The notes beneath the pieces are model-generated. The model was not told the DNA's origin. It was given only the letters and a program-made list of their open reading frames with translations, and did no database searches. Shown in pieces: positions 4,083 through 42,583 of a DNA stretch of 64,000 nt. How positions within the stretch are numbered: position 1 is the stretch's first letter; the number at the start of each line of letters is the position of its first letter. The position numbers and the translations under genes were made by a program. This DNA comes from Marsupella aquatica (taxonomy: Eukaryota; Plantae; Marchantiophyta): contig OZ316898.1 in assembly GCA_973895155.1 (NCBI GenBank), positions 20,099,292 through 20,163,291 on the forward strand, given 5' to 3'.

Positions 4083-7000
4083 CACTGCTCACCGCCATTA
4101 GTCTTATGTTACAAATAGTGTTATACTCAATTAATGTTAGTAAGTCTAAATCAAGTGAAGGGGTGTTTTGACAAGAAAATAAGAGTAATTGTGGATCTTT
4201 TGTAACCGTACATAGTATTTGTGATTTATATTAGGTTATGGTAAAAGTGGACAGGTGTAGTTGACATGTCAGTCTGAAAGCTTGTTGACAACAACGTGGA
4301 CCAATAAAGCCACATGCATTGGACAGCTAGTGTGATGGTTGCATGCATCACTAGCTCTCTACGTAATATTTTTTTTGATTTTCCTCACTATAGTAAGATT
4401 CTACTATGAACATAAAATCTTATTGACTTTTGTTTGAAGCCATGCAAAAATGGGGGCAAAGTTTTGAGTCGCTCCAGATTGTACAATAGCTCTCTATCCT
4501 GACAATGAATTTTCTGTTGTAAAGCTTTGTCGTGACAAGTCCACATGGGCAACATTTGATTGCAATCCCCTTTGAGAACGCCTGAATTTTCTCAAAATTA
4601 CAAATCTCGTTGACTTTATTTGCCACCATGCAAGAACGGGGCAAAGCTACGGGGGAAATTTGAGCTCATAGTGCTCCGATCATTGATGTGATTCAAACAT
4701 TGACAGATTGGAATGAATTGTGTGTCAATATAAGGGGCTGAAAGATTTATAACTTGCACATTTTAAATCTGGAAGGTTACCGTACGTCTTGCTTGCTAAT
4801 CAAATTATTGATTATTGCATGCCCCTTTGAGACTTGTACGTAGCTGAGAATCAAGTTGATCTTTTGATTGATCTGCAAAGGCAATAGATAGAGAGTGTGC
4901 TTGTGTATTTTCAATGATTCACAGTTGGCTTCCTATCATCGAATTAGACCATTTTGAACAGCTGAGGCTGTTGTCAAGCTTTCTTGAGTATTTTTTGCAT
5001 TTGCAAGAAATAACGATCTGCAGCTAAGTTGATCCACGAGGTGAGGTGAGTAGCTTTGGTTTGATTAAAGCTGAATCTTTAGTTTGCTTTCAACTTATTT
5101 TCAATCCATTTGATCAATCAAACATTGAGTTGAAGTGGAACTTGTGTCTGAGCGACAATTTTTCAATCTTGTGAGCTTGCAGGTCCAGGTGCAGGTCAGG
5201 GTACGTGTTCAAGTTAGTTCAAGCTATTGATCATAGATGGGCTCATATGGCTCTCCCCTTTTAAGTGCATGGAGATATGCAAGGCAGCCCTTGCCTCCGG
5301 TTCTGTCCACTGAAGAGGCTGAACATGGAACCGAAGAGCAGCAAGAGCAAGTCAACCAGCAACCACTATCGATTCAGGCTGAAAGATCTCGTACATTACA
5401 ACATGTCTGCACTAAGGCCCAACGAGTGAAGGTCATTAAGTGGATGCAGGCTATAGTTCAATTTAGAGGAGGAGAGGAACGATTGATTGCCACCGATGCA
5501 ATTAAACAATTTCCAAAGTGTTTTTGTTCTGCTAGTGCAACTGCAAACATTGTGAAGGCATCACAATGGTGGAAGGAACGGGAAAGTATTTTGGAATCTT
5601 TCAAGGTAGACAAGATGTGTGTGAGCCGATCATTTCGTGATGGGAGGAAACAGAGAGAGTTGAAGGCAGGTCCAGGTAGGGGGAGGAAAGCAGCCGCTTG
5701 GACTACTTGGTTGTATCCTATCGTGAGAGATGAGTTTGAAAGATTAAGGTATGTAGGCCTAAAATTCTCACCCAAGGTACTCCTTCTAGTTGCTAAAAAT
5801 GCATTAGTGACAAACAATCATCCCACTTTCTTTCCGCAAGCTATCTTGGATGAAGATCCAAGACCTCTGACAGATAGAATAACCCCCAGGTGGGTCCAAC
5901 AGTTCCAAGAGCGAAATAACATTGTCCATCATTCTCAGACCGGTAAACTTATGGTTTCCCCTGCCAAGCAAGAGTTCATAGAGAGACGAGTAGCTTTCCA
6001 CATGGGATTTCTTGCACGTGGTTTTAGATCTGGAATCTTGGATGAGAATGACCAAGAGAATATGGATGAGACTCACTTTTGTGTCAATATGGACAACGGG
6101 AAGACGTTAGGTTTCAGAGGAGACAAAAATGTGAAATATGCAGATATTGTTAGTGGAGGAGTTGGAATTACCATGGTAGTAAAAGTCACAAGAGGGGTTC
6201 GAGGGAAAATTGGGACCCCTTTCATGATTTTTTAGAATGATCATTGTTCTTATCCGATTAGGGGAGTTCTTGATAATGTGCCAGGTGTATGCTACCGCTC
6301 CACAACATCCTCGTTTATGACTTCAAAATGTCTGACAAAATATTACAAGGATGGGAGGGTCAATTGGGCAGATCCTAGTGGACATAGGAAAGTCCAATGG
6401 ATGGATAACTACCTAGGGCACAAAATTCTTCCGGATACCGAGACAGCCTTGGAGCACATTAACATGGAGGTGAGAAGATTCCCTGATAATGCTACTCACT
6501 TGGTACAATCTTGCGATAGCTTTGTAATTTCAAAAATCAAAGATGCCTGGACACGAAGGTGGGAGGTGAAGAAAATGGAGCTGATCAGGGATAGTCAATG
6601 GCATGGTGATGGAAGGCATGGTACAAGTGGTATGCTCATTAATCCAGGGAAATCTTTTTTCTTGCAATTGGCAGTTGACTCTGTACGTGATGTCAACAGG
6701 CAGGTTGACAAACATTACGAAATAAGTTATGCCAGAAAATCTATGATTAGAACTGGTCTCTCCTTAAATCTCAATGGGCTATGGGAAGAGGAGCAACTTT
6801 CACCAGAATTACAGCAAGTCATTGAGAAATATCGATGGAATTTTAACAAAGGGTTGCAAGGTCTGTTAGATATTGATCCACGATTGCCCCTAACAGAAAT
6901 TCCTTTGAATGTTGGAGAACCCTCAGCTCAAGAAGACCTTGACAGTGATGAAGTTGATGAGCTTGACAGTGACAAAAATGAGGACTCCCTGCAATTGCCT

Positions 7001-7709
7001 CACGAACCTGAACCACTGGAGGCGCTTGAGAATGGAGAGCCAGTAGAGATTGAACCAATAGCACCGATAGAGAACTCTGCAAATGCTGAGTTTTGGGAAT
7101 ACCTTTCCTCCCAGTATGGTTTAGACGAAAATGCTTCAAATTGACATGTTCAGTTTTGAATATTTTGTATTTGCAGTTTACCCGGGCCTTGACCAATTTT
7201 GTAATTGATAGTTATTCAAAGGAAAATATTATTTGTTAATTGCAATTTGAAAGATTCTGCGCACATCGCTCACAACGCGTTTGCAATTGATTCTTAAATT
7301 GATTCACATAATATTTACTTTGATAGTTAGTGACATCATCGCTGGTGAGATCAACAGTTTCCACGACTTTTTGAGCATTTTGGGGAAGAAAACAAATATG
7401 TTTTTGGCAGATCTATGAGGACAGGTGTCTATTTTGAGTGCATAAGTTTTCAGTGCAATGGGGATTCACAAATACAGTACAGTAGTGTTTTTCCATACCC
7501 CTAAATTTTAATTTCATATCATAATGATGTTTTGCAAACACTGTGAATTAATCTTACCAAAACTTGAATTAGCATTAGCCACATTCTATTTAATGCGCAT
7601 GTAAATAGTGTCACTCCAAAATTAACATTGGTAAGGTTAAATCTCGATAGGTCCAAATCTTGAGCACTCACCCAAATAGAATTAGTAAGACTAATCACGG
7701 TTAAGAGTG
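4083..7709 (+). mobile_element. Full-length pogo-like (Tc1/mariner superfamily) DNA transposon, 3627 bp
   Basis: 24-bp TIRs, CACTGCTCACCGCCATTAGTCTTA (4083-4106) versus revcomp of 7686-7709 CACTCTTAACCGTGATTAGTCTTA, 19/24 match. TA TSD at 4081-4082 and 7710-7711. Removing the element restores the 22-bp repeat phase. An internal DDE transposase is present. Confidence 0.92.
5237..7144 (+). pseudogene. pogo-type DDD (DDE_1-like) transposase with one in-frame premature stop
   Basis: ORFs 5237..6235 and 6278..7144 share a frame and are separated by TAG at 6233-6235 (probably CAG>TAG). CENP-B-like WVQQFQERNNI helix. Catalytic motifs NMDETH, WMDNY..H and HLVQSCD, with 36 residues between the 2nd and 3rd Asp. 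Confidence 0.9.
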
Positions 7710-10834: not shown

Positions 10835-11240
10835 TGAGGCTAGACTTGGAGCGAATGTAGATGACCTTGAGAAAGAGTAGAGCTTCAGTAGAGCACAGTA
10901 GAGCACAACTAAACACTAGATATGGGGTGAGGTGTGTGCGGAATGGTCGAATGACTCACATTTGACACTATGCCCCGGTATTCTCCTAATAGAATGCGGC
11001 AGAGTTTGCAACCATGTGTTTCCGCCATTCTCTATAATCTAACGTCGTTCAAGGCTACGTTACTGAAATGTTAAATTTTAGCAAGTTAGGATTAGTAGCA
11101 ATTAAACTAATCATTTAGTTATAGTTAAGTAGAAGTCAGGACTTTAGGGCCTCCACTATGTTAACCCTAAAAACCTTTAGACAAACTTCATTTTTCCAGT
11201 CAAAGTTCAGTTTTTGTGGTAGAGCAACAACTTTACAGAA

Positions 11241-11870
11241 ATGGAGCAATCTGGAGTCCTCTGCCTGATTGGAGTAACCATTGAGGCGATTTGGGGCATG
11301 CATGGTAGCCAATTAGTTTATGAAGGATGTGATATTCCCTTGGAAGATGGGAAAATGTGTGCTTTAGGTCCAAGTGCTCGCAGAGCTAGACTGAACAGAG
11401 AACACCAGGATGCAGGGTTGTCGATGCGGAAGCGAACCAATCATTTTTGTAGAATGGTTGGATCAGGCCAACACATGTACAATTTCTTTGTGCAAATCAA
11501 TACAATTGTGTATCAAGTGTGGGAAGAAGCGGGATGTCAATTGTTTGGAGTGCTCGGCCATGAATTTCACAGGCAACTTGGTGCACAAGAGAGAGACTGT
11601 CACCGTATAATGAATGAGTGTTGGGTAGTGAGAATTGCAGAGAACCGCAGCAAGAAAACTCCACAGATATTAGGATTCCAGAGAATGAGGATCCACCCCA
11701 CATACCGGCGATCAGAGGTGGGAGTCGGTGGAACACAAGTAGAACCGGTGGAAGTCGCCATTCAAGCAATTAACATTGGAGCCATCGAAACCGAGGACCA
11801 AACTTTGACTGATCTTTTTGAGGAACGATTAACTGAAAGACAACCAGTTAAGAGATGCATGATCCAGTAA
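11241..11870 (+). CDS. Uncharacterised 209-aa ORF, probably TE-encoded
   Basis: Intact from ATG to stop. Divergent from the 8609-10834 gene across a ~400-bp spacer with an AACCCTA telo-like motif. No recognisable domain. Confidence 0.35.
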   Translation: MEQSGVLCLIGVTIEAIWGMHGSQLVYEGCDIPLEDGKMCALGPSARRARLNREHQDAGLSMRKRTNHFCRMVGSGQHMYNFFVQINTIVYQVWEEAGCQLFGVLGHEFHRQLGAQERDCHRIMNECWVVRIAENRSKKTPQILGFQRMRIHPTYRRSEVGVGGTQVEPVEVAIQAINIGAIETEDQTLTDLFEERLTERQPVKRCMIQ

Positions 11871-12849: not shown

Positions 12850-15268
12850 GTAATTAATACAAAGAAGGATAGTGGATGAGTTAGGAGTTCCGGAGGAGGG
12901 TTAACTCCAGGAGTTGGCAACCAGTCAACTTCGGCGGTTAACACCGGTCAAGGTCTTGCCTTTGGGTACTACCCCAGGAGGAGTTCAAATCAACCACATC
13001 AAACTCGGATGGCAAGTGGATGCTGAGGCAGAGTTTGGACCATCTGATGATGAGGCCGAGGCCCTATCAACATTTTCAGAAGAGGATTTAGATCATGATT
13101 GCTATCGGGTCTCTACTCGATCCACCAGAAGGAAGGAAAGGTGGGATGGGCTGGCCAAAAATAAAGGGAAGGTTAAAGAATAAAAGATCGACTCTTTATC
13201 AACATCAACAGAAGGAGAAGGAAGGGCGCCGGCAACACAGGTAAGCCATGAGCCCACTAGTGAGCCCAATCCTTCACAGGACAGCGACTTCAATCGAGAC
13301 CACCCTAAGTTGTTTTACCCCTCTATTACGGCTAGTGTTAAGGAACAACTGCAAGAATTGGAAACCATGGAGAATACCAAAGCCATAGCCAAGGATGTGA
13401 AACGAGCAAAAGCGTTGTTTGTTTCGGAGGATCCAAGGGCTGTGGAAACTAGCGTGAAAAAACAGGCCGAAGCCAATACTGAGACACCGGCAGAAGAGAA
13501 GCCGATAGTCCCCTATGACTTGGCTAAAGATGTACTAGAATCTAGAGTCTCAGCAATAGTAGGTCAACTATTGAAAAATAGCCCGTACTTTCGGAAGCAG
13601 TTAAGGAAGGCCATTCTCGACAAGCCAAGATTACCCAAGGTAGCAACCAGATCCGATGTGCTGATGATAGAAGAAGATCAAGGAGCCCCAACACTACCAT
13701 TAATGATTCAAGGAGAAATATTACTAAGGGTACCCATCGATGGAGGATCAGGGGTATGTATTATGATTGATTCAACAGCAAAAGGATGGGGACTAACGCC
13801 GGAGATGACTGGAAGAGTGTTGAACATGGCCAATGGGTATCAGGTCATTCCCACGGGAGTGTTAACCGACATCAAGACTGAGATAGGAGGGATCTTCTTT
13901 AGCATTAACTATGTAGTAATGAAGCCGGTAAACCCTACATCATTTTAGCTATTGATTGGCAGGCCATGGCTGTATCTAGCCAAGGTAATAGAGGATTGGG
14001 GGAAGAATAAGGAGTTCACTTTTGGAACCCCCGCTATCACGGTATCTTGGGACACCAAGGATGACCGTAGGAGAAGCATCAGGGAGGTAGATGGGTATGA
14101 CAGTGGACTAGAGTCAGCAAATGAGGTACATTGGCTAGAATGCCTCACTAACCTGACCGAAGAAAGTATCTTTGGACCAGAGGTATCCCCCAGTGGACTA
14201 TGGCAAGAACCTATGGAGAGTGACTTGGAGGAATATGAAGATGAAACCGAGGACTGCTTTGCCATAGAGTCCACCTTTTTAGCTTCAATTCCAGAGGAAG
14301 CACAAAAAGTGGACCAGTTGGATGAAACGGCTAAGTGGGGAGCTGCACCCGAGCCAGTGGATTTTCCTCAGGCATTGTGGCAGAGCCGGCAGGATCCACA
14401 ACGCCGTCTATCATCGGCAATAAAGTAAATACCAAGGAATCGGCATAAAGCCGATTACAAGGGCAGAACAAATTGAGGCCCTATTAGAAGCCAAAAGAGC
14501 ACAGCGACCTAACCCTCAGGAGGCAAGAATGGATGAGATACACAAAAACAAGCTAGAGCCAAGGCCGAAAGGGAAGCCGACCACCAATTCAAAACCAAAT
14601 AGTCCGGCAAGGGGACACTCTGTGGATAACCAGGGAGAAACCGACTCGGCTAGTACGACCGAGATTCCAGTTTATGGAGGTATGAGACTGGAGAGGCTGG
14701 AAGCCAAATTGGACCCAAACTTGAAGAAGCAGATTAATCTGATCCAAGCACGGCAATACCGAAAGCTCAACTTAGGAGAAGGAAGGGAACTGAACTTGGG
14801 ACGGGACCTAGCACTTGAGCTTGAGAAAGAAATCAGTGAATTACTGATTGAATTTCAGGATGTGTTCGCATGGAGTCACCAAGACCTGAAGGGAGTAGAC
14901 CCAAAATTAGGAGAACATTGAATTGATCTCATGTTAGGGGCCAAATCATTTCGACAACCAATTTGAAGGATGAACCCTAAGTATTCCCTGATGGTCAAAA
15001 CTGAAATCGACAAACTAGTGGAAGCCGGATTCATCACTCCAGTCCTAATTCAGACTGGGTGTCTCCAATTGTGATAGTTCCCAAGAAATTTGGACCCGAT
15101 GGTAAACCCAAGATCCGGGTTTGTCAGGATTACAGGAAGTTGAATGAGGCTACGTTAAAGGACCATTTTCCTTTACCCTTTACTGATATGGTACTAGACA
15201 TGGTAGCCAGTCATGAATTATACTCATTCATGGATGGGTACTCTGGTTATAACCAAATCAGGATTAGG
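12850..15268 (+). mobile_element. Non-chromovirus Ty3/Gypsy (Athila/Phygy-like): gag C-terminus, protease and RT N-half; 5' end missing
   Basis: Protease VPIDGGSGV and IGRPWL. Pre-RT DVFAWSHQDLKGVDPKLGEH. RT SPIVIVPKK...VCQDYRKLN...DHFPLPF...DGYSGYNQIRIR, ending abruptly at 15268. The left boundary is approximate. Confidence 0.9.
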
Positions 15269-16836
15269 CAGAGATGATATGCAAAATTTGATGTACTATA
15301 CTTAATAAACATCCTGTAGGTTGATAACATTAATTAAACTATCTAGCATTTGAGACTTTGAAGCTTTCCTTATATGTCCTTCAAAGATCGATAAAAAGAC
15401 TTGTCACGCAACGAGTCACATCATTTCAGGACTCGAAAGGACTCTAAAACTTGCATTTTAGACAATGAAATTTTACCAAGGCATGCATACTAATAGAATA
15501 ATCTTATATTTTAAAACTCAAATATTGACACACACTAAACCTTTATGTACAGGACAAAAATAATCAGTAATTTTGGCTTATTTAGGGCCATCAATAATAG
15601 GATCCCTTAAAAAAGTTAAAAACTTGATTTATCTACATGGTGAGGTAGGTTACACCATGTAAAATAGTCTTGTGAAAAAATTAGACTTAAATGTTTTGAG
15701 ATAAAATCATGATGAAGCTTTTTCCATGTTACGAAAGTCATTTTTCACTAAAAAAAACATGTTTTTGAGTCCTGAAAGTGGTTCCTGTGAGGTACACCCA
15801 ATTGTGAATGAGGCCAGGAACTTGGGACCTGATTCAAATCCATATTTTCTAATACAAAATATAGATAGTACACACCCACTCTTCTTCATAAGTAACTACG
15901 GGATATATGAGTGGAATATTTGAATTCATAACCATGGTGGCAAAATCTATACCAAACTGATACATAAGCGTTTGACGTATTACATTTTTATCTAAACAAT
16001 ATAATCTAATAAAAAATGGGTTGATAACCACTCCCGACGATCTATGCACTCTTGGCAACCCATGCAACATCATTCACAATATATGGGAATAGCTAAAGCC
16101 TAAGGTATAAGTTAACCTTTGATAATATATCCTTGATATAGGCGACATAGCCGCCCTTGCCAGATTTGAGTATTTAACTTAAGGTGCTCAAGTGGTGGCA
16201 TAGCCCTCCATGACCATAAAAAAAATCCTCAATTCCTTCCATCATGAAAACCGGCGGCATAGCCCTCCGTTACATCAAGACAAACCATGGACTCAACTCT
16301 CAATAGTGGGAACACAATGCCCTATGGGAAGCAAGTTCCCTTCTATTTATATTTTGAAATGTTGACCACCCACAATTTGCTAGCCCACTGTTTTGTCCAC
16401 TATCTTAGCACACTATTTTATAAAGTGGATTATCCACAATTTGCTAGCCCACTATTTTGCCCACTATCTTAGCACACTGTTTTATAAAGTGGACTATCCA
16501 CAATTTGCTAGCTTCCTATTTTACCCACTATCTTAGCACACTGTTTTATAAAGTGGACTATCCACAATTTGCTAGCCCATTTTTTTGGCACACTATCTTA
16601 TTTTGTCATATTTTATTAGCTTAGCCTACTATACTCATTTGGCCTACTATACTCATATGGTATACTATTATTTTGGTATACTATTTTATTTTTACCTATT
16701 CTATGATTTTGGTCTATTATATCTAATAATTTATAAATGACTATTATGAGTCACACTATTTATTTTTATTTAATTTTTAATAATGTCTAATGGAGTGAGA
16801 AACTCTATGTGAGGTATTCTAACTCCAAAACTCATT
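15269..16836. other. AT-rich filler DNA at the left inversion breakpoint
   Basis: No Gypsy homology. Shares CCAATTGTGAATGAGGCC (~15798) with the right-breakpoint filler (~19677). Confidence 0.6.
16370..16600. repeat. 64-bp tandem repeat, ~3.6 copies
   Basis: CCACAATTTGCTAG recurs at 16370, 16434, 16498 and 16562. Confidence 0.95.
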
Positions 16837-18354
16837 TCTTTACGACACCGGCACAACAGCGACATGTGATAACCAAGCCGGGACATGCTTTCCATGCCGA
16901 TCACTAGTTGTTCCTCCTTCAAGATCTTCTTTAGTTGGGTGAGGAAGTACTCGTTGTAGTCTCGGTTTGGGTCTGGCCTCTCCGCTAGATAGACCCATGC
17001 CTTGTCGATCTCTGCCCTCGGCAAGTTACAATGCATGGTCACCCGCAAGAAATTGATCATTTCTCCTATGTGCGGGTTTGTGCAGGTGTTTCGGAAGAAG
17101 CCATTCTTTGTTGATGGCCGTGGAAACGACCGGAACTCCTTTTCTGGCAAGGTCTTCCTGGATCTACTTTGGTCTTATTGCCCATCGGCAAGCCAAACAC
17201 TTCGGCAATCACCCGGGGAGTGAGATAGAAATCCTTCCCATACACCCTTGTGGAATTGGTCTCGGGCTCCCATGATCCCATGAATTCTAGTAAGTCTGAA
17301 TCCGGCACCTTCGACTTCAGCCATGGTAACTTTACGAATGCTTCCAAGCCGGATCCGGCCATGAAGCCCTGGTATTTTGGAGTCTGCATAGTCGTAAAGC
17401 ATGCATCTTCTTCCCGCGCAAAGTGTAATTGCACCTCCTCGGGGAGGGTCGCCGCCTAGCCTTTCCAGGTGTCATCTCTTGTTGGAACGACATTGACGGG
17501 GTCGACCTCCTCCTCTTGGCTTCCGCCTGCCTCCTGCTTCCCTGCTCTGCTGGTTTCTTGGGTGCCACCGACCTCATTCTTTTCGCAGGGGTGGCTTCTT
17601 CGTTGTTGTTCCCTTTCCTCTTCATAGCGGCTACCGTGGATGTTTCTCCCAGCACGGTTGCCTTCGTCCACCCCTCCATGCTACCCTTCAACTCCCAGTG
17701 TATGTCGTTGCAGCGGTTGATGGCCTCCCGGATGCCGACTATCTTGTTCTCACAAAACAGAAGATCATCGAGTTCGTCAGCAGTAGGCGTCCACAAGAAT
17801 TCAGCCATAATGAGTTTTCCTCCTAAGAAAGCAGACTTTTGCAGCTTCCACAGCCGAGCGAGCTCCTACCGTTCTCGAGCCGCTCTCTCCGATTTTTCAT
17901 CCTCGTAGGTCCCAATATACTCAGTTTCCCGTTCTAACAGGCATCCCCAAAAATGAGCAGCTTGATTGACGTTGCTCATACCCTTCTTGAGTTGATTGTC
18001 GGTATCTGCTTCCACCCCGAGTGCTTGCCTGAGCAGCGGACAGTAGTTGGCCTCCCATAGTCGTCCGCTTGGCTCGTGCTTGCAAATGAGCTGCCATTCC
18101 TTGCGCTCGGTCCTTACCCCCCTTGGCTGGTCTTCCTTCCCGTTGGTTATCCATAGCCGCTGGTACTTAGCGCGCCCTAACCCTAATCGTGTTCCCTCCC
18201 CCGACGTCCTTACTTTCGGCCTCGGCTCGGGTTCTATAGTCACCCTTAATTGTTTATATTTCCCTATTTTTGTTACTATACTAAGGTGTTTCCTAGGGTA
18301 CACTCCTGATTTTACTATTTAAACTGGCCTAATGATTCCTGGCTAGGCATCACA
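16837..18354 (-). mobile_element. Gypsy 3' LTR, first 1.5 kb (inverted), carrying the N-terminal half of the LTR-borne ORF
   Basis: Begins TGTGATGC at 18354, directly after the PPT-like GGGGAG-CTA and the end of integrase. 17645-18354 is duplicated at 23965-24675. Encodes MKRKG...AKRRRS and GLEAFVKLPW...LLEFMGSW...RVYGKDFYLTPRVIAEVFGLP. Confidence 0.85.
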
Positions 18355-19600
18355 TAGCTCCCCACTTAATTGTGAAGCGTCCTCGCGAACAACTTCATCT
18401 TCGTCCATATAGTATTTCTTGAGGCGGTCGTAATGAATGCGAACTGGGTATATTTCTCCAGTAATGTTGGCCAATTGCACGGAGCCATTGGAGAACTTCA
18501 TGTTTACCCTGAAGGGTCCTAACCAGCGAGTGTAAAGTTTACCCGAGAACCTACTATACCTACTATCATAAAGTAATACAAGATCTCCTATGTGGATACT
18601 AACTGGTTTCAATCTTTTATCGTATTGTTGCTTCATGGTATTCTGTCTATATTTTACTCTCTTGGCTAAAATCATTCTTGCTTCTTCTAAAGCTTCTAAT
18701 CTATATTCTCGCTCCTTTTGGCTTTCCTCCTCAGAGACTCTTTCCTCAATTGTAATTTGAAATTTGGGTATCTCAAGTTGCATGGGTACCAGAGCTTCTT
18801 GCCCAAAGGTTAAGAAAAAGGGTGTATGACCAGTAGTGGATTTATAGGCTAAATTGTAAGCAAAAACAACAGCAAACAATTTATCATCCCAATCGAGTTT
18901 GTTTTGAGCTACAGTTTTGTTTAATATTTTTCCTATAATCCCATTAGCTCGTTCCTTTCTCATCTAACTGACTTAGTACTGAGCCGATACAACAGCCTGA
19001 GACATCTATGAAGACATGAAAACCCTTGTTCCAGTCTGGTGCTATCATGACTGGGGCCTCTACTAACTTTTGCTTTAATTCCACCACACCTGTTACTCTT
19101 TCTGCTGTGGGTTCAAAGTCTGTGCTTGCCTTGAGCATGTTGGTTAATGGTAAAGCTAGCTTGGCAAAATCCTTGATGAACCGGCAATAATACCCAATGC
19201 ACCCCAAGAAGGATCTCACATCTTTTATGTTCTTAGGTTGCATGATATGAAGCCATACTGCTAGCTTACCCTTGTCAATCTCAATGCCCTTCTTCGATAC
19301 TTTGTGCCCTAGCAGCACACCTTCTGTTACTCCAAAGAAACATTTATCTAGGTGTAACTTGAGACCTACCTCTCTGCATCTCATGAAGGTCTTCCTTCGG
19401 TATTTAGCATGTTTCGATGCTTTCCCAAATACTGCAAAGTCATCAATGAAGATTTCCATGAACTTTCTCAAGTAGTCATGAAAAATGTTCACCATTAATC
19501 GTTGGAACATAGCTAGTGCGTTGTAGAGCCCAAACGGCATACGATTGAAGACATAGATCCCCCATTCCGTGATGAAGGCCATCTTGATTTGGTCCTCCTC
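18343..19600 (-). mobile_element. Inverted Gypsy pol segment: RT C-half and RNase H start fused by deletion to the integrase C-half
   Basis: EEDQIKMAFITEWG...MPFGL...FIDDF...FHVFIDVSG...VLSQ, then ERANG...WDDKL..VVFAYN...TPFFLTFG...RWLGPFRV. No chromodomain. Confidence 0.92.
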
Positions 19601-19726
19601 ATTACACCTTACAAATGATGTCCTAAAGCATAATAAACTATGGTCACTTTTGAGTGTGACATTCCTTTTGGGTCCTCCAATTGTGAATGAGGCCTCCTTG
19701 AGTCTTCCTTGAGTCTTCCTTGAGTC

Positions 19727-22700
19727 TAAAGATTATTGTGCGAAGGAAGATAGCGTGTAGGGAAATCTTAGTAAGAAAGTTTGGAGAAGAGTAATATAAT
19801 GTTATAGTATCTTCGGAAGAAGCTCTAATACTTTATGGGGATCATCCAAGGGAAACTTTAAGTATTTTTGTGCTTGTATAGTTCAGGTGGGTAGTCGTAT
19901 TTGCACAGGCAGCAAGGCCCAGTGTCTCTCGAGTAGTTTAAAACCCCAAGACACCGGTATGCCCGAAGTCAGATATTCGCCCCGGTACTGCCCCTGCAAG
20001 CAAGAGCACCAAAGGAGGTTCCGGAACCAGGACCGGCAATAGAGAAACCGACCCCGCCCGACAGTCCTACAATCGAGCAGGTGTTTAGGCCAAGGAAGGA
20101 GGACTTGCCAATGCAACAACAAGGCATGCAGAATCTACTGAAATTGCTGGAGAAGGAAAGGAGAACGACAACGGGACCGGTACAAAATACTACTTCCGAA
20201 GTTGGCCTTAGCCAACTTACCAGGGAAAACCCCTTTACCTTGGTCAAGGAGAGAAGGAGGCCGGAACACGAGTCTGGAGTCCGAATGTATGTAGGAGCTT
20301 CAAGTCCCGAAGCCGAGGAAAAGCAGCCCGAAGCCCCTGGTCACGACAAGGAGAAGATGAGATCAACGTGGAAGCTGGAGGAACCAGGACCCGTGATCTG
20401 TGGGGCCGTGTTCACGGCAGGACCAGGACAGCAACGGGGGGAGCTGATAGTCCAAGCCGAGGAGGAGGCGGTAGAAGGCTACGACAATGATGACTCCGGC
20501 TACGGGTCAGACCATCATGTTCCAGGAATAAGGACCTGTGGCAGGTTCATCCCCACTCTTCCAAGAGTAGTTCGAGGGGACCCAACCCAATAGAGCAGCC
20601 CCGAGTCTCCCCCACCAGATGTCGCTCCCCCGAGCTTTGACGACATAAAACAGATGGCACAGGAGTTTCAGGAACGACTCAGGGAGGAAGAAGAGGCAGC
20701 CCTGGCTAGGGAGAAGGATTTACTAGGAGGAGAATGGCCAAAGGACATCCGACGGCTTGCAGAAAAATGAAGCAGCCCGCCAACCACGATAGAAGAAATT
20801 CGCAAGGCTGCTTGGGAACAAAGGCCGCGGTGGATGATGCCGATGACTTCTACTCACTCCGCCTATGCTAAAGAACGAGCCATGGAGTATGGGGAGATGT
20901 GTGGGGAACTGGCGCTCGGCATCTTTGGGGAGGAGTTGGAGCAAGGACCTTTTTTCCAGAGGGAAATGTTGGAGAAGCACCGATTAGAAGAAGCGGTGGC
21001 TTTGGAGAGAAGCAAGAAGGACGAAGTCATCCATCGGCTTAGGGCAAGGGAAGCCGAGGTAGAAGACCTGAAGGCGGCCAAGAAAGCCCAAGATGAGTTG
21101 CGGATTAAGCGATATGAGCTCAACATCATGCAGGGGCAATTGGATACCGCGCGGTCTGATAGTCAGATTATCAAAGATAAATTGACTCAGACCCAAGGTG
21201 AGCTGGCCGATTCGATCAAGGAGAAGGAGAAATGGAAGCGAGAGCTGAGAGACATAGAAGAGGCCCACATAGCAGCCAACAATTGGGCCATGGCGGAAAC
21301 TCAAAGAAGGACAAGGGCGCTGAAGGGGGAACTCAAGGATATCCGTGGAGCCCTGGAGCAGAAGGAAACCGAGTTAGGAAAATCCTATCAGGCGATCATT
21401 GTGCTACGGCAGGAGCTCGCATCCATGATGGCCAGCTTCAAGGCCGACCTCCGCGAGAAAGACGACCAGCTCGACCAGACTTATGCCAAGATGAATAAAA
21501 TGGAGTCTAAGGTTGTTACGGAGCTCGACAAGGAGCTGAGAGCAACCCAGGAAGAGAGGGCTACCTTAAAGAAGGAATTGGAGGAAGCCCAGAAGGAGCG
21601 GGAGGAGGCATGCAAGGACCTGGATGAATTGCAGGAGGAGTTGGAGGAAAGCACGCGGAAGATGGAGAACTTACAGTGGCGAGCCGACAACCAAATGGAG
21701 CAACTGAAGAAATAGGCCGCAGTATTTAAGTGCTTGGCTTCCTCAGGTCCAAATCCAATTGGGGCAACCAAGTTACCAGGTTGGTCACGACGGCTTGAGG
21801 AGCCGTATTACTCCCTGACCCAGAAGGTTTCCGCTTCTTCTTCTTCTTTGGTTCGGCAGTTGGCCTCTTCCCCTTGCCACTTACCTCCGGCACTGGTGCG
21901 AGTATCTCGGCTTGTCCTTCGGCCAGTACTACAAGGAGGTAAACCTAGCACCAACCTCAGGCAGGGCCAACATGAGAGCCATGAGAGCCCCGCGTCCTCC
22001 GTGTCCCGAAGTGTTCCTTCGATATATCGACATAGATATCAAGTTGATCGAGACAAAATAAAAGAAAGGTAAATGGCAGGGGGCACCAGTCCAGCACCCG
22101 GGATACAATGAGCACACATCTCGAAGACAAAGTAGGCGATTCCCAGTCACTTATGCATGAACTTGTGAAAGGGAGGCCTAAATTAGTAGCGCAAGATGTG
22201 GACAGTATCTCACCTGGAATCCTGGTCACCAGAGAGGAGAATGTCCACCAGCACGAGACCAGCACCTAGATCCCCAAAGGAGATCTAGGGAGTCACCAGA
22301 GAGCCAATTTTGCAAGAATCACCGAGTGAGCCGTAGGGATGGTAGAGTCACCCCAGGAATTGGAGGCAAAAAGTGAGAAGCCGCAAGAGCAGCGCCTCAA
22401 GGAATATGCAACATAAACCAGTACAAGTGATCGCATGCAATGCAGTACACCAGTGGGCAGTGTCCGCACTACCAAATCAAAGATGTCATAACGTTGTTTG
22501 AACTTCAGTAAAGATGAAAGCGCTTTCAGCATAAAGGCCAAAGAGATTAGCCCCGCGACTCCTTCTGACTGTGACACAGTTTCACCCTAGTACCCAGAGA
22601 TTTAGCCCACAGCACGAGCACGGTCGGACCCCTTGTCTGCTCCCAGATACATTCCTGTCATTCTGATGTTAGAATCTTTGGGAAAAAAAACTTGAACCAA

Positions 22701-23964
22701 AGAAGAAGAAGAAGCGGAAACCTTCTGGGTCAGGGAGTAATACGGCTCCTCAAGCCGTCGTGACCAAGGAGGTAAACCTAGCACCAACCTCAGGCAGGGT
22801 CACTGCAGAGGATCCAACTGCCCTAGAAGGCGGGGATGGCGAAGCCGGGGCTAGGATACTCGGTGATGAAGCCGGGGTACCGGATCCATCACTAGAACAT
22901 GTCGGGGAGGCCGTGGCCGATGCTGAGGCCAAAGCCGAGGGTGGACCCAGTCAGGCCGATGGAGAGTTGACTCATTCCGGAGCAGGTAATCTGTCAGAGG
23001 ACGGACCTACGGTAGTGGTTGTGGAGGAAGTGTTGGGGGCGTCCATTGAGGACCAGACACCGCTGCCATGACGGTGGTGGAGGGCCGCTCCTTTTAAGGA
23101 GGGAGGAGGCGTGAGTGGGCAAGGCGGGCTCAGATCTCCAAGTTTAGAATTAGGATCAGGACCAAGGGGCAGCCCTGACACTTAGCTTAGTGGGATTGCG
23201 GATCCACTGGTAAGAGCAACACTTGTGCTCCTGCCTCGCTGTACATAGGTAGATTACAGTTAGGTAGATTAGGCTTACGCTACAAGGAATTAGGCGGATC
23301 CACTACCACGATAAGTACCTGGGCAGCGGGGAGTTCAGGGCCTTCTTCCTTAGCAAGTTTTTAGTGCAACAGCAGGGCTGGGATCAAGTAGTTAAAGAAG
23401 CTCTCGGTTAGTTATACTGTGACCCTTGTGTATATTCATGTTTCCTCATACCTAAGAGATGAATAGAGTTGGCCTCACGGCTTAGTTCGCAGATCTTGTA
23501 TATGAGAAGTATTGTTTGTATGGCAAGTGCATGATATAACTCAGTCAGAAGGAGTCATTTTGCTATTTGTGTGTCGCATTAACTTGTGTGAAGATTGCCC
23601 ACATCAACCAAGAAAGGAGTAAGCAAGGTAGTAAGAGTTGGATGTGTCAAGCTGAGAGAGGTCTTAGCGGGTTACCCAAGCCAGTTGGGGATCATTCCGG
23701 CGGCGGAATCCAAACATACCCAAAGGAAAACCAAGAGAGGAGGACAAGGGAAGGCCTAGAATAGACCGGCTACGTATCGCATGACCTGATGAAGGATCTG
23801 TCCAGTATATGTGAGTAAAATGTTAATAGTAATAGTAGTAGAAAGAGGTTAGCAGCGTCCCATGCCGCTAAGCCGCGAAATCGGCCTCGCCAAGAGCAAA
23901 ACCTGCGGGAATTGGCTTGTCCAGAGGGGTTTCTTGGGTTTAGGGAGCCATGGGACGCACCACA
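19727..23964 (+). mobile_element. Gypsy 3' LTR, remaining 4.2 kb, with the coiled-coil part of the LTR-borne ORF
   Basis: Ends GGGACGCACCACA at 23964; its revcomp TGTGGTGC matches the LTR start TGTGATGC at 7/8. TAAAGA microhomology joins it to 16837-16842. ORFs 20081..20593 and 20834..21715 are in one frame, and ORF 22760..23071 continues the protein. Confidence 0.75.
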
Positions 23965-24675
23965 TCTCATAGCACGGTTGCCTTCGTCCACCCCTCCGTG
24001 CTACCCTTCAACTCCCAGTGTATGTCGTTGCAGCGGTTGATGGCCTCCCGGATGCTAACGATTCTGTTCTCACAAAACAGAAGATCGTCGAGTTCGTCGG
24101 CAGTAGGCGTCCACAAGAATTCAGCCGTAATGAGTTCTCCTCCTAAGAAGGCAGACTTCTGCAGCTCCCATAGTCGAGCGAGCTCCTGTCGTTCTCAAGC
24201 GGCTCTCTCCGATTCTTCGTCCTTGTAGGTCCCAATGTACTCAGTTGCCTGTTCTAACAGGCATCCCCAAAAATGAGCAGCTTGATTGACGTTGCTCATA
24301 CCCTTCTTGAGTTGATTGTCGGTATCTGCTTCCACCCCGAGTGCTTGCCTGAGTAGCGGACAGTAGTTGGCCTCCCGTAGTCGTCTGCTTAGTTCGTGCT
24401 TGCAAATGAGTGGCCATTCCTTGCGATCGATCCTTACCCCTCCCTGACTGGTCTTCCTTCCCGTTAGTTACCTATAGCCGCCGGCACTTAGCGCGCCCTA
24501 ACCCTAATCGTGTTCCCTCCCCTGACGTTTTTACTTCCGGCCTCGGCTCGGGTTCCATAGCCACCCTTAATTGTTTATATTTTCCATATTTTTGCTACTA
24601 CACTAATGTGTTTCCAGGGTTTACTCCTTATTTTATCATTTAAACTGGCCTAGTGATTCCTGACTAGGCATCACA
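23965..24675 (-). mobile_element. First 711 bp of a second LTR copy of the same Gypsy family
   Basis: About 90% identical by eye to 17645-18354. Starts TGTGATGC at 24675, abutting an unrelated transposase, and is cut at 23965 by the end of the plus-strand LTR. Confidence 0.9.
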
Positions 24676-25935
24676 ATCATCTTTGACGCAACTATATAGA
24701 CCATTGCCAAGGATATTGAAGTTACAACTTGATAATTGTGCCGGAGACAACAAAAACAGATTTATTTTGGCATATTTGTCACTTTTGACAGCGCGAGAAG
24801 TATTCAAGGAAGTTCATTTGGGAATTCTGATGGTTGGACATACCCATGAGGATGTTGACGCAATGTTTGGTAATTTTTTGGAAGCTCTGATGAAACAACC
24901 ATCGTATACTCTCCCTGATTTAATGTTGCTGCTAATGAAATCACGTAGACCAAACCCTATTCCCCATTGTGTACAGGAAGTGCCCAATTTTAAAAGTTAC
25001 TTAACACCTTACATGTTGAAAGGGGGAGATACATTGGTGGGCCATCTAAAACCTCGAGTGTTTCGGCTGTTTGTTCAAGAGGATGGCATGCCTTGTATGC
25101 AATACAAGCTAAAGGCAATGGATCAAGGTTGGCTTCCAAATGGTGGAATCAAAATGTGGTCATAGACGGTCGAGAAACGTCCTAACCTCCCGACTGGAAC
25201 CCCAAAGAGGTTACCCATGACAGAGGTTAAAGTGTTGGAGGAGGTTCGAGAAGGCCTGTTGAAGCAAGTGAACTTTTTTGAATTGATCATGAGGAGAAGC
25301 CACATCATGGAGGAACAAAAAATGAGTTGGGAGCCACTCATTGAATATTCAAATCGAGTGAGAGACACTTTGGGTAGAGAAGTTCAGTATTTGCCGGAAG
25401 ATGGAAATGAGTTGGTACACGGATTTTGGCCTGTATCCAAATGGAGGGAGCATGTTCCATTAGCATACCGCAATGTTGCATGTGAGTTGGATACACAGGT
25501 AGACTATGTGGGGCCTCGGAAGGATAAGCCACGTGAAGTGTTTAACCCGCGGATTGATGTTACAAAAGGTGTTTATGTCATGGTGAGACCAGACACTAAG
25601 GACTTGGAGATTTACCAAATTTATTTGGGAGAAGCAATGAGTGATGTTGAAGAGGGAAGTTTAAATGATCAAAACCAGATTGAGCACATGTGTGATGTGA
25701 GATGGTTTAGACCTGTCATGTCAAAGAAAAGAGGTCAACCATAATGTGAGCAGATAAAAGAAAGATGGCTCGATTGTTGGAGCAAGAAATGGGAATGTGA
25801 TACTGGGTATGAAATGGAGAGAATTAGTGTGAATACTGTGCTATGGTGTTTCAAACTTACCACGGGTTGCTGGAAAGTCTGGTTTGATTTTAATTCCAAA
25901 AAGTCATGTTGGGAAAGCACAAAACAATCTTACTA
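24676..25935 (+). pseudogene. Sola-like (DUF7869-type) DDE transposase, C-terminal fragment
   Basis: LKLQLDNCAGDNKN...LMVGHTHEDVDAMFG motifs. In-frame stops at 25163 and 25742. The 5' part is lost at the LTR insertion. Confidence 0.75.
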
Positions 25936-26387: not shown

Positions 26388-27669
26388 AAATTATCTAGAA
26401 GTCCAATTTTGTCTAAATTGGGGTTATATGGTCAAAGATGAAAGTGACGAGGCTAAGTGAGAACATGAGAGTCAAAACACTAGAAGGTATGTTTTGCTAT
26501 CAATCATTGTTTTAAATGTATATTTTATACTGAGTGTATTATAATTATAATCCTTCTAGAATTACATTTTCACTTAGTTTTTGAAATGTTAATTTATTTT
26601 AGCACTAATAACTTCTCAATGTTGGAATAAGGAAAATTATACTACTGTATGTATAATTTGCTTCAAAACTTTTGACAACTTTCTTGGATTTTCTTATATA
26701 TATATATATAGGACAAACAGCGCTTGAGCAACAAGGCTTTAGCGATTGGTTATTAGCAATTGGAGAGGGGACTTTGCCAACAGGGCCTGATTTGGGCGAT
26801 GAGGTCATTTGTTTGTCGCATGACTTGATAATGCCAACTGATCATCTTAGTGACCTTATTGTTGAGATCTATGGCTCAGATCCAATGAACTTCAACAATG
26901 TTAACTTTCTAAAAGATAGAGCTATCTTGACAACCACAAACAAAGATGCGGATAAGGTCAATGAGGAGGTGATGGGTGGCTTTCCTGGAGAGGTAAATTC
27001 CTTACCACTAGCAACATTAAGAACTTTAAATGTTGTACTTCAAGGGAAGTACTTTCAATGAAAGTTAGTAACTTTTTTACCATTTTTATTCATGAGTTTT
27101 TGCAGGAACATGAGTTTTTGAGTGCAGATTCAATTTCCAATGAAGCAACTGCTTTCATGTATCCCATAGAGTTCCTCAATACATTGTTGCCATCGTGGTT
27201 ACCTCCACATAAGTTGACCCTTAAGATTGGTGCACCCATCGTGCTTTTGAGAAACATGAATGGGTCAAAAGGACAAGCCAATGACACTCGCTTGATAGTT
27301 CGTGGTTTTGGGCGTCATGTCATAGATGCAGAAATTATCACACGGAAGAACATCGGAGATCGTGTTTTTATTTAATTCACACATTCCCCTCTTATTGCAT
27401 CTGACTCAGGGTTACCATTTGATCTTCGACGATTTCAGTTTCCTATCCGCGCTGCCTTTGGTATGACCATCAATAAGTCTCAAGGTCAAACCTTGGCAAA
27501 GATTGGGATATTTCTGCCAAACCCGGTTTTCTCACATGGTCAATTATATGTGGCATTGTCTAGGGTTCGTGCTCGAAGTGGCATTCGCATTATGATATCA
27601 AGGAATGCTTATCCTGATAAGCATGACCTTTACACAAGGAATGTTGTATACCGTGAGATTTTGAGATGA
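26388..27669 (+). pseudogene. Helitron RepHel/PIF1 helicase C-terminal fragment, 3 exons (~26388-26486, 26712-26992, 27106-27669)
   Basis: LSENMRV, FSDWLLAIGEG, RAILTTTN, LPPHKLTLKIGAPIVLLRN, QFPIRAAFGMTINKSQGQT, VFSHGQLYVALSRV and TRNVVYREIL. GT-AG introns. Stop at 27373. Confidence 0.92.
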
Positions 27670-28915: not shown

Positions 28916-31900
28916 ATGAATTCCAGTGGATTTCGAATCAGCGTGAACGAGAAAGAGTTTATATACGAGGCATTGCGTGCTGAGCAGCGCGTTGATGGTC
29001 GTCGCCCCTTTGATGTTCGTCGACTCTCCATTACCTTTTCCAAGTATGTGTCCTTTTGTCGAGACTTTGCATTATTGCTGTTTGAAGTGGTTTCGCGGGA
29101 TGGTTTAGTTGCGGGAAGGGAAGGTTCTTTGAGCCGAATATCTGCCGCCGGCCTTTTCTCGACCTTCTCATATTTGCTGCAGGACTTTTAATCCCTTTGA
29201 TAAGTCTGGGGCTAAAAATTATGCTAATTGGGCATTGGACATCCGTGATCTTTTCGAACGTACTTGCATTTGCTCACTGCTCGTTGGTTGAGGAGATTCT
29301 TGTTCATTGAGAGAACATTTGGGATTTTAGATCTTACGTTCTGCGAAAGGTTAGCATAATTGCATTATAGGGTCAGTTCAAAAATTAGGAGGAAGCATTA
29401 ATCGTGTGTAAGAATGACTTATTTGATGGCTTGGTAATGTATGACGTTAGTGTGGTGCATTCGTATTCTTAACCAATTATTCTAGTCTTGTATCCTCATG
29501 GTGTAAGGTGCACCCGGCAGCTTTACAGCACTTCCCTTCAGAGTTGAAGAGATACCGATGCATTACCTCTATCTTAGCCACGTAGAGTTGAGGATGGCTT
29601 TCGGAGATGTCGGCGTCATATTTGTAACTTTCAAGGCACTGAGGTCTGCTTGTTTAGCGTGCAGACAGGATGGTTCAGTCGAAGTTTTACAAGGACAAAC
29701 GAGGGTATTGGCAGTGGTGACAGGCCAGCTTGCGCCACCCTATCCAGACCGTCCCACTGAGGGTTCACTTGTCATCTTCACAGAGTTCTCCCCCATGGCT
29801 GACCCCTCATTTGAACCTGGTCGTCCCGGAGAAATGGCAATAGAGTTGGGCCGAATCATCGATCGTGGGTTACGGTATGTCATGCTAGCCTTCCTCGGAT
29901 AACAGTGACATGAATGGTGGTGTAAGTTTTTTGTGAAGGTGGTATCCGCAATTCCTGAGCTAGGTCCTCACATGCGTTCAAGTTCTCCTTTGATCTCGTC
30001 TCCCTGGGGTCCGTTCTGTCTAGGGTGCCTCGATTGTTCCTGCCCCTGCACGTCAGGTTGCACCGGTTTCGTGAATCGGACGATAAATGTTTGTTGTGCT
30101 TTGATAATATTGTGAGGGCAGTATTCTTGACAGCACAGGTACACGAGCTTGTGAATTCTAGAAATATGCCGTTTGCTGGGGAACTAACTGTCCTATTTTG
30201 GGAGATCTACAGAGAAAGCAGGGCAATCGATACGGAATCCCTATGTGTCTTGGCTGGTCAAAAAGTGTGGGCCATTCGTGTAGACATCCACATTCTGGAC
30301 AATGGCGGGTAAGTGTTTTCCCCCATGAGGGTGATCACATTTCTGCTTCATGTGCTGGTTTTAAGATTCTGATTTAAGCTAGCAACTCACATCTCTTTAC
30401 TGAAAAGATACGAAGAGTCTACAATTCAATTAAATCATGGTATCTGGTGGGAATTTTCTCTTTTGTCTCGTGCTATTTGTGTTCAGATATTTTCCTTATC
30501 AGTCCGTAAATCGCGTGGGGTTCCCGTTAGTGCAGAAATCTGGTGGATGTAGCAAACATTGCAGCACTAGCAGCTCTACATTCCTACCGTCGGCCTGAAT
30601 GTACTGTTGGAGGACATAATGGACAGGAGGTTATTGTCCACCCACCTGAGGTGACCTATTTCCCTTGGCTCTCCTTTCTTGGCTTGGCCGGACAGATTCA
30701 AATTTGGTTTGGGTGGTCATACTGCTATCATTTGGTGACAGGATACTTTCTCGAATTCATAAAACCTTCACATTTGTGTGGTTTCGTTGCAAATTGCGGT
30801 CAGCCTTTGCACACTGAGGTTTGTACCAGGCCTTTTGCAGACTTTCTATGATACGTGTCTTACCTTGAAAGGCTGGCTAATGCCAGATCTTTTGGGGGGT
30901 TTTATTGGTAGGTTTATTAACAGGACAGGTTCAATTGGACGATAACAATGGCAGGTCCGAGAACCGGTTCCACTTATCATACATCACTTACCGATTGCAG
31001 TCACATTTGCGTTTTTCAAAGGGGATCTTCAGGTTTGCAACTCATATCTTTCACCTTCAACTTATTTTTTGAGATCTTCATGACTTCCAATCGCTCTTCT
31101 TTAGATGTTAAGTGCCATCTACGTCCAGGTTAAGAGGAGTTCAGTTGTGAGTCTCACTGCATGCACTTGAAAATGTGGTTCTCGAGCTCTCGTTTGCTAG
31201 ATAAGTTGCCCATGATTTCCGTTGTGGCCATGTCGGCCATCATGTCAAGAATTCATCGTCACTTATCTTTTGAAATATTTTTATGAGGTTTTCCCAGGTA
31301 GTCGATCCAAGCCTAAAGGAAGAGGCTGTCATGGGGGGGAGATTAACGGTGACAGTAAATGCTCAAGGAGATATATGTGCGATTCAGAAGGGTGGTGGCA
31401 TCGGAGTGTCTGCTTCTGAAATAATGCGTTGTATACGGATTGCTTCTTCCAAGGCATCTGAAATCACAAACCAAATTAAGAAAGAGGTATGAAATGTCCA
31501 ATTGGACGCTGCAAATCGCTATGTGCTGTCTGTTACGCAAGATGCCGTGGTAGCCGTAAAAGTAGCAGATTCCGAACTGATTCTGTCATTAAGGTTTGCC
31601 CCACCACTGCCCCTTCCAAGATCGACGATAACGGTTGTCCTGATTTCTTGATTTGTGGGCTGTAGTTAGAAGCAAATGCTTTGGAGCGAACTACAAGGAA
31701 AATCAAGCGGCATTCTACCTTGACTTTCAAGGATGTGACAATTAGACAAGATTTAGTACGGGGAGATACAGAGGTGGAGGAGGTATTTGGATCATCTGTT
31801 ATGCAAGCGGAGCAGAGAGATGCAATGATGGAGATAATCAAAGAAGAAGAGATGATAGAGTCAACCAGTAGTGAAAGTGAGGATGAGGTCGAAGAAGGAG

Positions 31901-41300: not shown

Positions 41301-41377
41301 GACGAGGGAAGCCTTCAGAGTCAGCAGCTCTCTGTGGAGGTTGCAGGAGGAAAGGAAATTAAAGGAGGGACCGAGCT

Positions 41378-42583
41378 ATGATGATTCTGAAGTTTGGGAT
41401 GAAAGATTTGATCATTAGTGGACTATGTACCACTCTCTTAATAATCCTCTTCTTTTTCGACATGATACATCCTCCGAATACGATGGCTGTCCAGAACTCA
41501 GTGCCTGGTCGACTGAATTGTTTCATGGGGACCAACGGCGCTGGACCCGCTACAAATCATGAGCAGGACAAATTCATGTCACCGGTTATGGCGGCGAATT
41601 TGACCGGCGGCGTAAATTGGACAGCTATCGAGGAGGAATTCCCAGGGCTCAATGAGATATTAGAGAAGGCTGCACTGCCGAACAAAACGATTATTCTGAC
41701 GACATTGAATGCTGCCTGGGCTTCAAAGGACAGTATGATTGACCTCTTTCTGGGAAGTTTTTATGCTGGCGAAGGGATCTCCCACTATCTAAACAACCTC
41801 ATCATCATCGCTCTGGATCAAGTGTCGTACGATCGGTGCCGTGAAATTCATCGACACTGCCTCAGACTCGAGACAGCCGACGTCGACTTCGCTGGAGAGA
41901 AATTTTTCATGAGCGATGATTATTTGAAGATGCTGTGGCGGCGAGTGGAGCTCTTGACAGCCGTGCTCGAGCTGGGCTACGACCTGATCTTTTCGGATGC
42001 AGACATCCTGTGGTTTCGGGACCCTTTTCCCCATCTCTCACCGGACGCCGACTTCCAAATCGCATGCGACCAATTCTATGGCGACCCCACTGACCTCAAC
42101 AATCGTCCCAATGGAGGATTCGTGTTTGTCCGCTCGAGTCGACGGACTGTCGGCTTCTACAAGTACTGGCACGAGTCACGCCTAGACTATCCCACACAGC
42201 ACGATCAGGATGTCTTCAACTCCATCAAGAGAACGACGCAGTTTGCAGAGTTCGAGCTGAAGCTGGAGTTTCTGGACACGGCGTACTTCGGAGGATTCTG
42301 TGAAGTATCGACGAATCTGTCCCGAGTCTGCACCATGCATGCGAATTGCTGCACAGGGCTGGAGAGGAAGCTATTTGATCTCAAGCTTACAATTTTAGAT
42401 TGGGCACACTACAGGACCCTAACTCCAAAAGAACGGGAGGCAAGGAGAGTGTTTTGGCAAGCTCCAAAGGAGTGCTTAAATTCATTTACGCATAGCGAGA
42501 GCAGTCCCAATAATGATACCATTGATGATCCCATGAACCCACCCACTGAACTTGAAAGGCAAAGAGTGGGTGGGGGTGTGTAA
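41378..42583 (+). CDS. Nucleotide-diphospho-sugar transferase family protein (GT77-related, At4g15970-like), 401 aa, single coding exon
   Basis: N-terminal TM anchor. NKTIILTTLNAAWA, SMIDLFLGSF, FMSDDYLKMLWRR, DxD motif FSDADILWFRDPF, ADFQIACD, PNGGF, HDQDVFN, TMHANCC and WQAPKEC. Confidence 0.93.
   Translation: MMILKFGMKDLIISGLCTTLLIILFFFDMIHPPNTMAVQNSVPGRLNCFMGTNGAGPATNHEQDKFMSPVMAANLTGGVNWTAIEEEFPGLNEILEKAALPNKTIILTTLNAAWASKDSMIDLFLGSFYAGEGISHYLNNLIIIALDQVSYDRCREIHRHCLRLETADVDFAGEKFFMSDDYLKMLWRRVELLTAVLELGYDLIFSDADILWFRDPFPHLSPDADFQIACDQFYGDPTDLNNRPNGGFVFVRSSRRTVGFYKYWHESRLDYPTQHDQDVFNSIKRTTQFAEFELKLEFLDTAYFGGFCEVSTNLSRVCTMHANCCTGLERKLFDLKLTILDWAHYRTLTPKEREARRVFWQAPKECLNSFTHSESSPNNDTIDDPMNPPTELERQRVGGGV

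Follow-up and report, generated by a model that had tools for sequence, protein, structure and literature searches.

A decayed terminal repeat of a Ty3/gypsy family in Marsupella aquatica, very likely a 4.7-kb long terminal repeat with a single large open frame

Long terminal repeats (LTRs) of plant retrotransposons are treated as non-coding, and an LTR consisting mostly of a gene would alter the way in which very long LTRs are read. Reverse transcription duplicates to both ends of an element all sequence from the purine tract to the primer site. Whether this can include a large gene is the question raised by the window analyzed here, a 64,000-nucleotide stretch of contig OZ316898.1 from Marsupella aquatica, in which an earlier note had placed a multi-kilobase LTR of a gypsy element with one large sense open reading frame (ORF). 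Our analysis supports that claim and changes several of its details. The window contains a decayed end repeat, the 3′ one, of a high-copy Ty3/gypsy family. This repeat is very likely a single LTR of ~4.7 kb, and a nuclear accessory protein is the likely product of its single unspliced frame of ~1,220 codons; we put the probability of this reading at roughly 0.7. It is based on a purine tract and a TG start immediately behind the integrase, another copy that begins at the same base, a frame that remains in register across an insertion, contiguity of the LTR halves in other copies, an 893-bp non-coding tail and a CA end.

Ends and continuity of the repeat

On the minus strand, the frame of the C-terminal part of the integrase (18343–18963, taken from the ORF list; weak SH3_Tf2-1 match, E 0.026) continues across a purine tract at ~18355–18367 into the adjoining TG of the LTR start, TGTGATGC, at 18354, and its stop codon lies 9 bases inside the LTR. 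TG…CA ends beside a purine tract are hallmarks of LTRs. As previously noted, a second LTR copy starts at the same base (24675); it is 91% identical to the first over 712 bp and adjoins unrelated DNA, that of a DUF7869 transposase. This copy (23965–24675, minus strand) sits in the transposase gene and is cut by the end of the main element. At that end, 23964, the unit terminates with GCACCACA, a 7/8 inverted match to the start at 18354, and abuts position 711 of copy 2, which is the pattern expected of a nested insertion. The earlier note had proposed the same end point, which stands, but had reached it through a TAAAGA join of the two LTR halves that does not: TAAAGA lies inside an insertion, F (see below), and an inverted 6-mer is shared by 79% of 5,000 random 60 × 150 bp zone pairs.

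Other copies of the family were studied in short Logan contigs from four public runs, X1–X4, which represent at most four samples from two studies; no single contig spans the unit. One run possibly derives from the window's own sample, but it is the contigs departing from the window copy that carry information. Among the best 15 of 121 and the best 12 of 46 contig joints, at least two are at 18353/18354 and at least two at 23964/23965, with both present in one contig. At least two joints at or adjacent to 18354 occur in other sequence contexts, and few long contig pieces (18333–18588 in X2) cross this position. One contig connects 23964 to a different family position. An X1 contig joins 23965 to 18354, and thus an LTR end to an LTR start, with 7 letters between them; it may contain two LTRs in tandem, the junction of an integrated circle or insertions next to each other. 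The junction at 23965, together with the joints 18353-23104 and 23964-20592, apparently reflects family copies inserted in each other's LTRs, possibly by self-targeting or clustering.

The same ends were considered in the light of two other explanations. First, the 4.7-kb unit might have inserted directly behind the purine tract as a mobile element in its own right, e.g., as a DNA transposon that has short inverted ends and carries a PMD-like gene. PMD domains are found in MULE transposons (PMC5418596). The ends of the unit are short inverted matches. However, the integrase frame terminates inside the unit, a Pfam scan revealed no transposase within it, the TG…CA ends beside the purine tract are those of an LTR, and the purine tract is not duplicated after 23964; a separate element thus appears very improbable. 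Second, the frame could be an ordinary internal extra ORF, with the real LTR confined to the last ~0.9 kb and 18354 marking where a derivative was truncated or recombined. Near 23097–23114, a TG follows a purine-rich run, and it is the last 0.9 kb, a non-coding stretch, that reaches the highest summed depth in X1 and X4. On the other hand, the purine tract, the TG start, the 7/8 terminal inverted match and the second copy all converge on 18354, the alternative start matches the end at only 4/8 positions, and the summed depth of the conserved domain of the frame is near that of the 3′ tail in X1–X3. We consider a short LTR decidedly unlikely and proceed with the long one.

The long LTR is interrupted in the window copy by insertions and inversions. 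The limits given previously for the main inversion, 16843–19726, had to be revised: the inverted segment extends over ~15274–19597 (limits ±3 bp). Its two breaks, of which one lies within the reverse transcriptase (RT) and the other within insertion F, both carry a 3-bp microhomology. Upstream of it, at 13184–15273 on the plus strand, are the gag end, a protease-like region (weak Asp_protease match, E 0.19) and the 5′ half of the RT of the same Ty3/gypsy element; the 3′ half of the RT and the start of the RNase H are at 18947–19597 on the minus strand (RVT_1, E 1.8e-12; RT_RNaseH_2, E 9.3e-8). The RT halves abut, as 15056–15271 (plus strand) corresponds to residues 101–162 of the Ty3 RT and the minus strand from 19597 to residues 167–377. 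In addition, X2 has a loose end before 19598 that agrees in 28/30 letters with the reverse strand of 15303–15274; elsewhere in the window, agreement reaches 20/30 at most. It follows from the RT junction and the loose end that 15275–16847 and 19598–19953 were once one piece, F, and that the inversion has the limits given above.

With the inversion allowed for, protease, RT, RNase H and integrase follow each other in the Ty3/gypsy order, and the Ty3 RT is the best solved-structure match to both RT halves. The RT motifs are, we presume, non-chromovirus-like. A deletion near 18963 takes out the remaining RNase H and the first part of the integrase. An additional archaeal-type RNase H, a Tat trait, was found neither between protease and RT nor after the integrase, the interval between RNase H and integrase being deleted in the window copy. 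Upstream of gag, a 215-codon open frame (11223–11870, plus strand) without a meaningful Pfam match is located near the place where the missing 5′ LTR would be expected.

Insertion F starts with TGTC at 16847 (15275–16847, minus strand, 33% GC) and ends with GACA at 19953 (19598–19953, plus strand, containing TAAAGA). It is 1,929 bp long, with a GC content of 33–40% vs 52–54% for the LTR, and is flanked by CCGG at 16848–16851 and 19954–19957, a 4-bp target duplication that fits the NCGN target preference reported for Phygy. F is likely a solo LTR of another family. It contains 64-bp tandem units at 16352–16600 and an 18-bp internal repeat.

The earlier claim that the two LTR halves are contiguous was borne out, since 16852 is joined directly to 19954 in contigs from all four runs. 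Summed depth, examined over 19660–20130, was low at 19708–19947 and rose sharply at 19948–19963 in 4/4 runs (in X1, from 474–2,398 to 57,000–251,000). Among the best 24 of 129 loose-end rows, every run had loose ends before 19954/19955 (at least 12, 1, 4 and 10 contigs), which, by eye, match the minus strand down to 16852 (29/30 letters in X3). Loose ends behind 19956 in X3 and X4 were mixed, with an agreement of 0.51; copies of F at other sites would be expected to end in this way.

The LTR thus comprises a first part at 16848–18354 (minus strand, 1,507 bp) and a second part at 19958–21772 (plus strand). The latter is followed at 21773–21969 by a local 159-bp inversion (21773–21931) and 38 bp of family sequence. 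The inverted stretch, which carries a KKKKKRK tract, contains 52 codons without a stop on the minus strand, and opposite-strand joints of 21778–21781 to 21929–21932 were found in 4/4 runs. At 21970–22802 (plus strand) there is a second, low-copy insertion, which extends to ~22693 (summed depth in X1 ~1,000 vs ~200,000 nearby), and a 109-bp duplication of family sequence (identity 79/82 and 37/38). The third part, at 22803–23964 (plus strand), encodes the acidic tail and contains the final stop codon at 23069–23071 and the non-coding tail. Without its two insertions, the unit measures 4,681 bp, i.e., ~4.68 kb instead of the ~4.9 kb estimated earlier, of which ~3,660 bp are coding; the frame fills 78% of the TG…CA unit.

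A single unspliced frame

According to the earlier note, the two halves of the frame were joined through a 116-nt intron at 19771–19886, for a total of ~1300 codons. This "intron" is part of insertion F, which other copies lack, and the spliced path contains 3 stops in 37 codons. The LTR pieces flanking F meet at a codon boundary and in register without it, so the frame is unspliced at the proposed site; its length is ~1,220 codons. In the homolog P0001, the 8 residues past the conserved domain are identical to the frame at 19958 in 4/8 positions, to the path into F in 1/8 and to the spliced path in 0/8.

The first LTR part contributes ~460 codons, with 2 stops and 2 frameshifts. The second (19958–21772) has 3 stops in 605 codons, whereas 2,000 shuffles averaged 27 stops and never fell below 11. 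After the stop at 23069–23071, the remaining 893 bp are closed in all six frames, with 11–22 stops per 297 codons. The window copy as a whole is dead, having accumulated 5 stops, 2 frameshifts, 2 insertions and 2 inversions; the length at both frameshift sites differs in other copies in the public-run contigs.

The two window copies can be compared over 194 codons. In the proposed frame they share no stop, whereas every one of the other five frames has 5–9 stops in common, and the stops at 17868 and 24197 are each a sense codon in the other copy. Copy 2 has two further stops and a 1-bp frameshift. Between the copies, the ratio of nonsynonymous to synonymous substitution rates (dN/dS) amounts to 0.31 for the proposed frame, to 0.38 for the antisense frame with the same third positions and to 0.61–1.02 for the other four. 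The stops thus support the earlier proposal of an open ancestral frame; the second ground given for it, an excess of synonymous differences, is weighed below. Relative to pol, the summed depth, a weak measure that does not represent copy number, was ~4–7x for the domain and 2–3.5x for the coiled coil, and this excess fits a duplicated, solo-forming LTR.

A TATAAA sequence is located at 18258, 97 bp into the LTR, and is also visible in copy 2. The same box could serve an arrangement in which the LTR is as long as proposed and the ORF belongs to R/U5: genomic RNA would start at the TATA-like box, and the ORF would be the first cistron, upstream of the primer-binding site, much like the 5′ ORF of Ogre. 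Sense ORFs with PMD plus a coiled coil are known at the 5′ end of Tat elements of lineage IV (PMC4408406). However, such an arrangement would presumably require a minus-strand strong-stop DNA of ~4.5 kb and translation of gag behind a 1,200-codon ORF, and there is another TATAA at 23535, in the non-coding 3′ part. We regard it as unlikely and favor a position of the ORF within U3.

The predicted protein and the weight of the evidence

The frame would encode, in this order, an N-terminal segment of 200 aa, a basic stretch resembling a nuclear localization signal, a conserved domain of ~200 aa, a Pro/acidic linker, a coiled-coil segment of ~245 aa, a lysine tract and an acidic tail. The first three of these come from the first LTR part. 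The ~245-aa segment, encoded, like the linker, by the second LTR part, is charged, free of proline and predicted to form a coiled coil; Pfam coiled-coil matches to it were only weak. A hydrophobic stretch is absent (maximum 19-residue hydropathy 0.86). The N-terminal 200 codons gave no meaningful Pfam match. The peptide blocks listed in the earlier note are all present, while the PMD/Transposase_32 assignment made there found no Pfam match at E ≤ 1 and is reduced to a lead from an Atlas search.

An exhaustive search with 98 residues of the domain retrieved 11 matches, 8 of them credible. The other three (P0003, P0004 and P0010), repeat-rich proteins of bacterial type, two of them named as such, were dropped as chance matches. 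The only named credible homolog is from the liverwort Calypogeia fissa (CAM6122807.1). P0001 (288 aa) spans both frameshifted halves of the domain with 42% and 32% identity. When residues 35–250 of P0001 were submitted to the Atlas language-model search, unnamed clusters (0.90, 0.89 and 0.86) were followed by Transposase_32 (0.86) and ATHILA ORF-1 (0.84), and 9 of the 10 best named matches fall in one family or clan. A Transposase_32/ATHILA ORF-1 label for the domain is, at present, a lead only. The domain also has what we take to be a likeness to PMD motifs (W-x-x-E-T…hairpin…F-G-L). The AlphaFold model of P0001 was poor (predicted local distance difference test score 36.7), which makes the empty Foldseek result uninformative; a histone H2A match in a profile search of solved structures (E 0.029) was weak and taken as chance. 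Word-based protein searches with 16845–17174 found no relative, either longer (0/34 candidates) or of similar length (0/1), and a profile search had P0007 as its sole match among 7,992 scored candidates. No related locus was found among 487 metagenome stretches or 4 viral contigs, and 15 metagenome loci with an 18-base LTR-end motif shared no longer match with the window.

Several observations weigh against an LTR that encodes a nuclear accessory protein. We saw no element with two full LTRs, no primer-binding site and no whole-element target duplication; the 5′ LTR is absent from the window, a scan upstream of gag found no convincing primer-binding site, and copy 2 covers only the first 711 bp of the unit. 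The lack of a two-LTR copy also speaks for the short LTR discussed above. In a neutral control that preserves the mutation spectrum, a mean of 12 synonymous codons was obtained vs 17 observed, a value reached in 9.1% and 5.6% of 10,000 runs; the synonymous excess from the two-copy comparison alone is therefore marginal. Elements without pol could be an alternative source of the depth excess. The start codon is uncertain, being ATG in copy 2 and ATA in copy 1, only 24 nt past the TATA-like box. Finally, PMD (PF10536), Transposase_28 (PF04195), Transposase_32 (PF20167) and ATHILA ORF-1 (PF03078) had no Pfam match in the window pieces (E ≤ 1) or among the 11 sequences from the homolog search (E ≤ 0.1), and the Atlas family scores are below 0.9, with 127–132 shared features, a smaller number than is usual for true family members.

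Possible origin, function and known systems

Large accessory ORFs are known from the Ogre, Tat and Athila non-chromoviruses, where they encode PMD plus coiled coil (in Tat elements; PMC4408406), Transposase_28 plus an Smc-like coil, or ATHILA ORF-1 (PMC6317226, PMC7264820, PMC11963269). Published reports place the extra ORFs in the internal region and give LTR lengths of up to ~5–6.5 kb (PMC7264820, PMC4408406, PMC6317226, PMC11963269, PMC6431247). The protein layout here, a putative transposon-specific domain followed by a coiled coil, with basic tracts, resembles theirs, as does the size of the LTR, theirs reaching ~5 kb. In contrast, their ORFs are described as internal and their long LTRs as non-coding, whereas in the window the integrase enters the LTR directly and the ORF fills most of it. 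The protein layout is already known from internal extra ORFs; its position inside the LTR appears to be new.

A plausible starting point would be an extra sense ORF between pol and the LTR, an arrangement of the Athila type. Plus-strand priming may then have shifted to the purine tract at the integrase end, enclosing the ORF; the ORF would thereby have become part of U3, and reverse transcription would place it in both LTRs. Expression might proceed from a promoter at the LTR start, with the TATAAA at 18258, or through a spliced RNA from the upstream LTR.

The sag ORF of mouse mammary tumor virus (MMTV) has a length of ~320 codons. It lies in U3 of the LTR (PMC9412291), and MMTV sag/naf is similar to the present case in that both ends carry a whole ORF within the LTR, possibly under a promoter of its own, MMTV having a U3 promoter (PMC9412291). 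It differs in that MMTV is a retrovirus and the product a membrane protein from a much shorter ORF; no sequence relation is expected. The VANC anti-silencing factors of VANDAL transposons and the MAIN/MAIL1 proteins, which have PMD domains, offer the functional model: nuclear proteins that transposons encode, that have a MAIL1-like domain and that dimerize through a coiled coil (bioRxiv 2024.04.02.587720, PMC5418596), VANC resembling MAIL1 in predicted structure (bioRxiv 2024.04.02.587720). They belong to DNA transposons or are host genes, and are likened to the present protein by analogy. In the Phygy and Selgy elements, the polyprotein region also reaches the end of the internal part, but these elements are described as short and without extra ORFs (PMC6317226). 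The NCGN preference of Phygy is not seen at either of the two flanks of the present family (24676 and 23965). No plant retrotransposon whose LTR contains a gene came up in a literature search that had most subscription papers outside its reach.

By analogy with the PMD plus coiled coil ORFs and with VANC/MAIL1, we tentatively suggest, at somewhat less than even odds, that the product is a nuclear, dimeric, chromatin-binding regulator that protects expression of the family. Its Transposase_32/PMD-like domain might bind DNA or chromatin, the coiled coil might mediate dimerization and the basic tracts nuclear import; the protein could then keep the family transcribed or shield it from silencing. 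If the TATA-like box is a promoter, any LTR, even a solo one, might supply the protein in trans. It is a rather doubtful further step to suppose that in this lineage a 1,200-codon chromatin-acting, anti-silencing gene was moved into the LTR together with a promoter for it and that solo LTRs still express the protective factor. Were this true, removal by recombination between LTRs would spread the counter-defense rather than end it. If the LTR is mostly one gene, the formation of solo LTRs, the main route of element removal, would in any case leave an intact gene behind. The family also provides a testable case for the role of PMD/Transposase-type accessory proteins and, if the host is liverwort-like, would place accessory ORFs in early land plants, a group in which the Tat-like elements of mosses have been reported to be without them (PMC4408406).

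The rest of the window contains other mobile elements and host sequences. The DUF7869 transposase-like gene (24668–25744, plus strand, E 7e-38) is cut on its 5′ side by LTR copy 2. A DDE_1 (pogo-like) transposase at 5237–7144 (plus strand) is represented by two ORFs with one stop between them, and a Pif1 helicase fragment at 26657–27375 (plus strand, PF21530) is likely a Helitron remnant. A Ty1/copia pol (60283–63555, minus strand) has 1,090 stop-free codons with integrase and RVT_2; a second, decayed copia element (51009–55728, minus strand) lies within 50601–56979 between 109-bp direct repeats that are 99% identical. A host gene, an uninterrupted 406-codon ORF for a nucleotide-diphospho-sugar transferase (PF03407, E 6.6e-67), is found at 41363–42583 (plus strand), and an exon-like stretch at 29507–29902 (plus strand) presumably resembles an exosome RNase PH subunit (RRP45-like).

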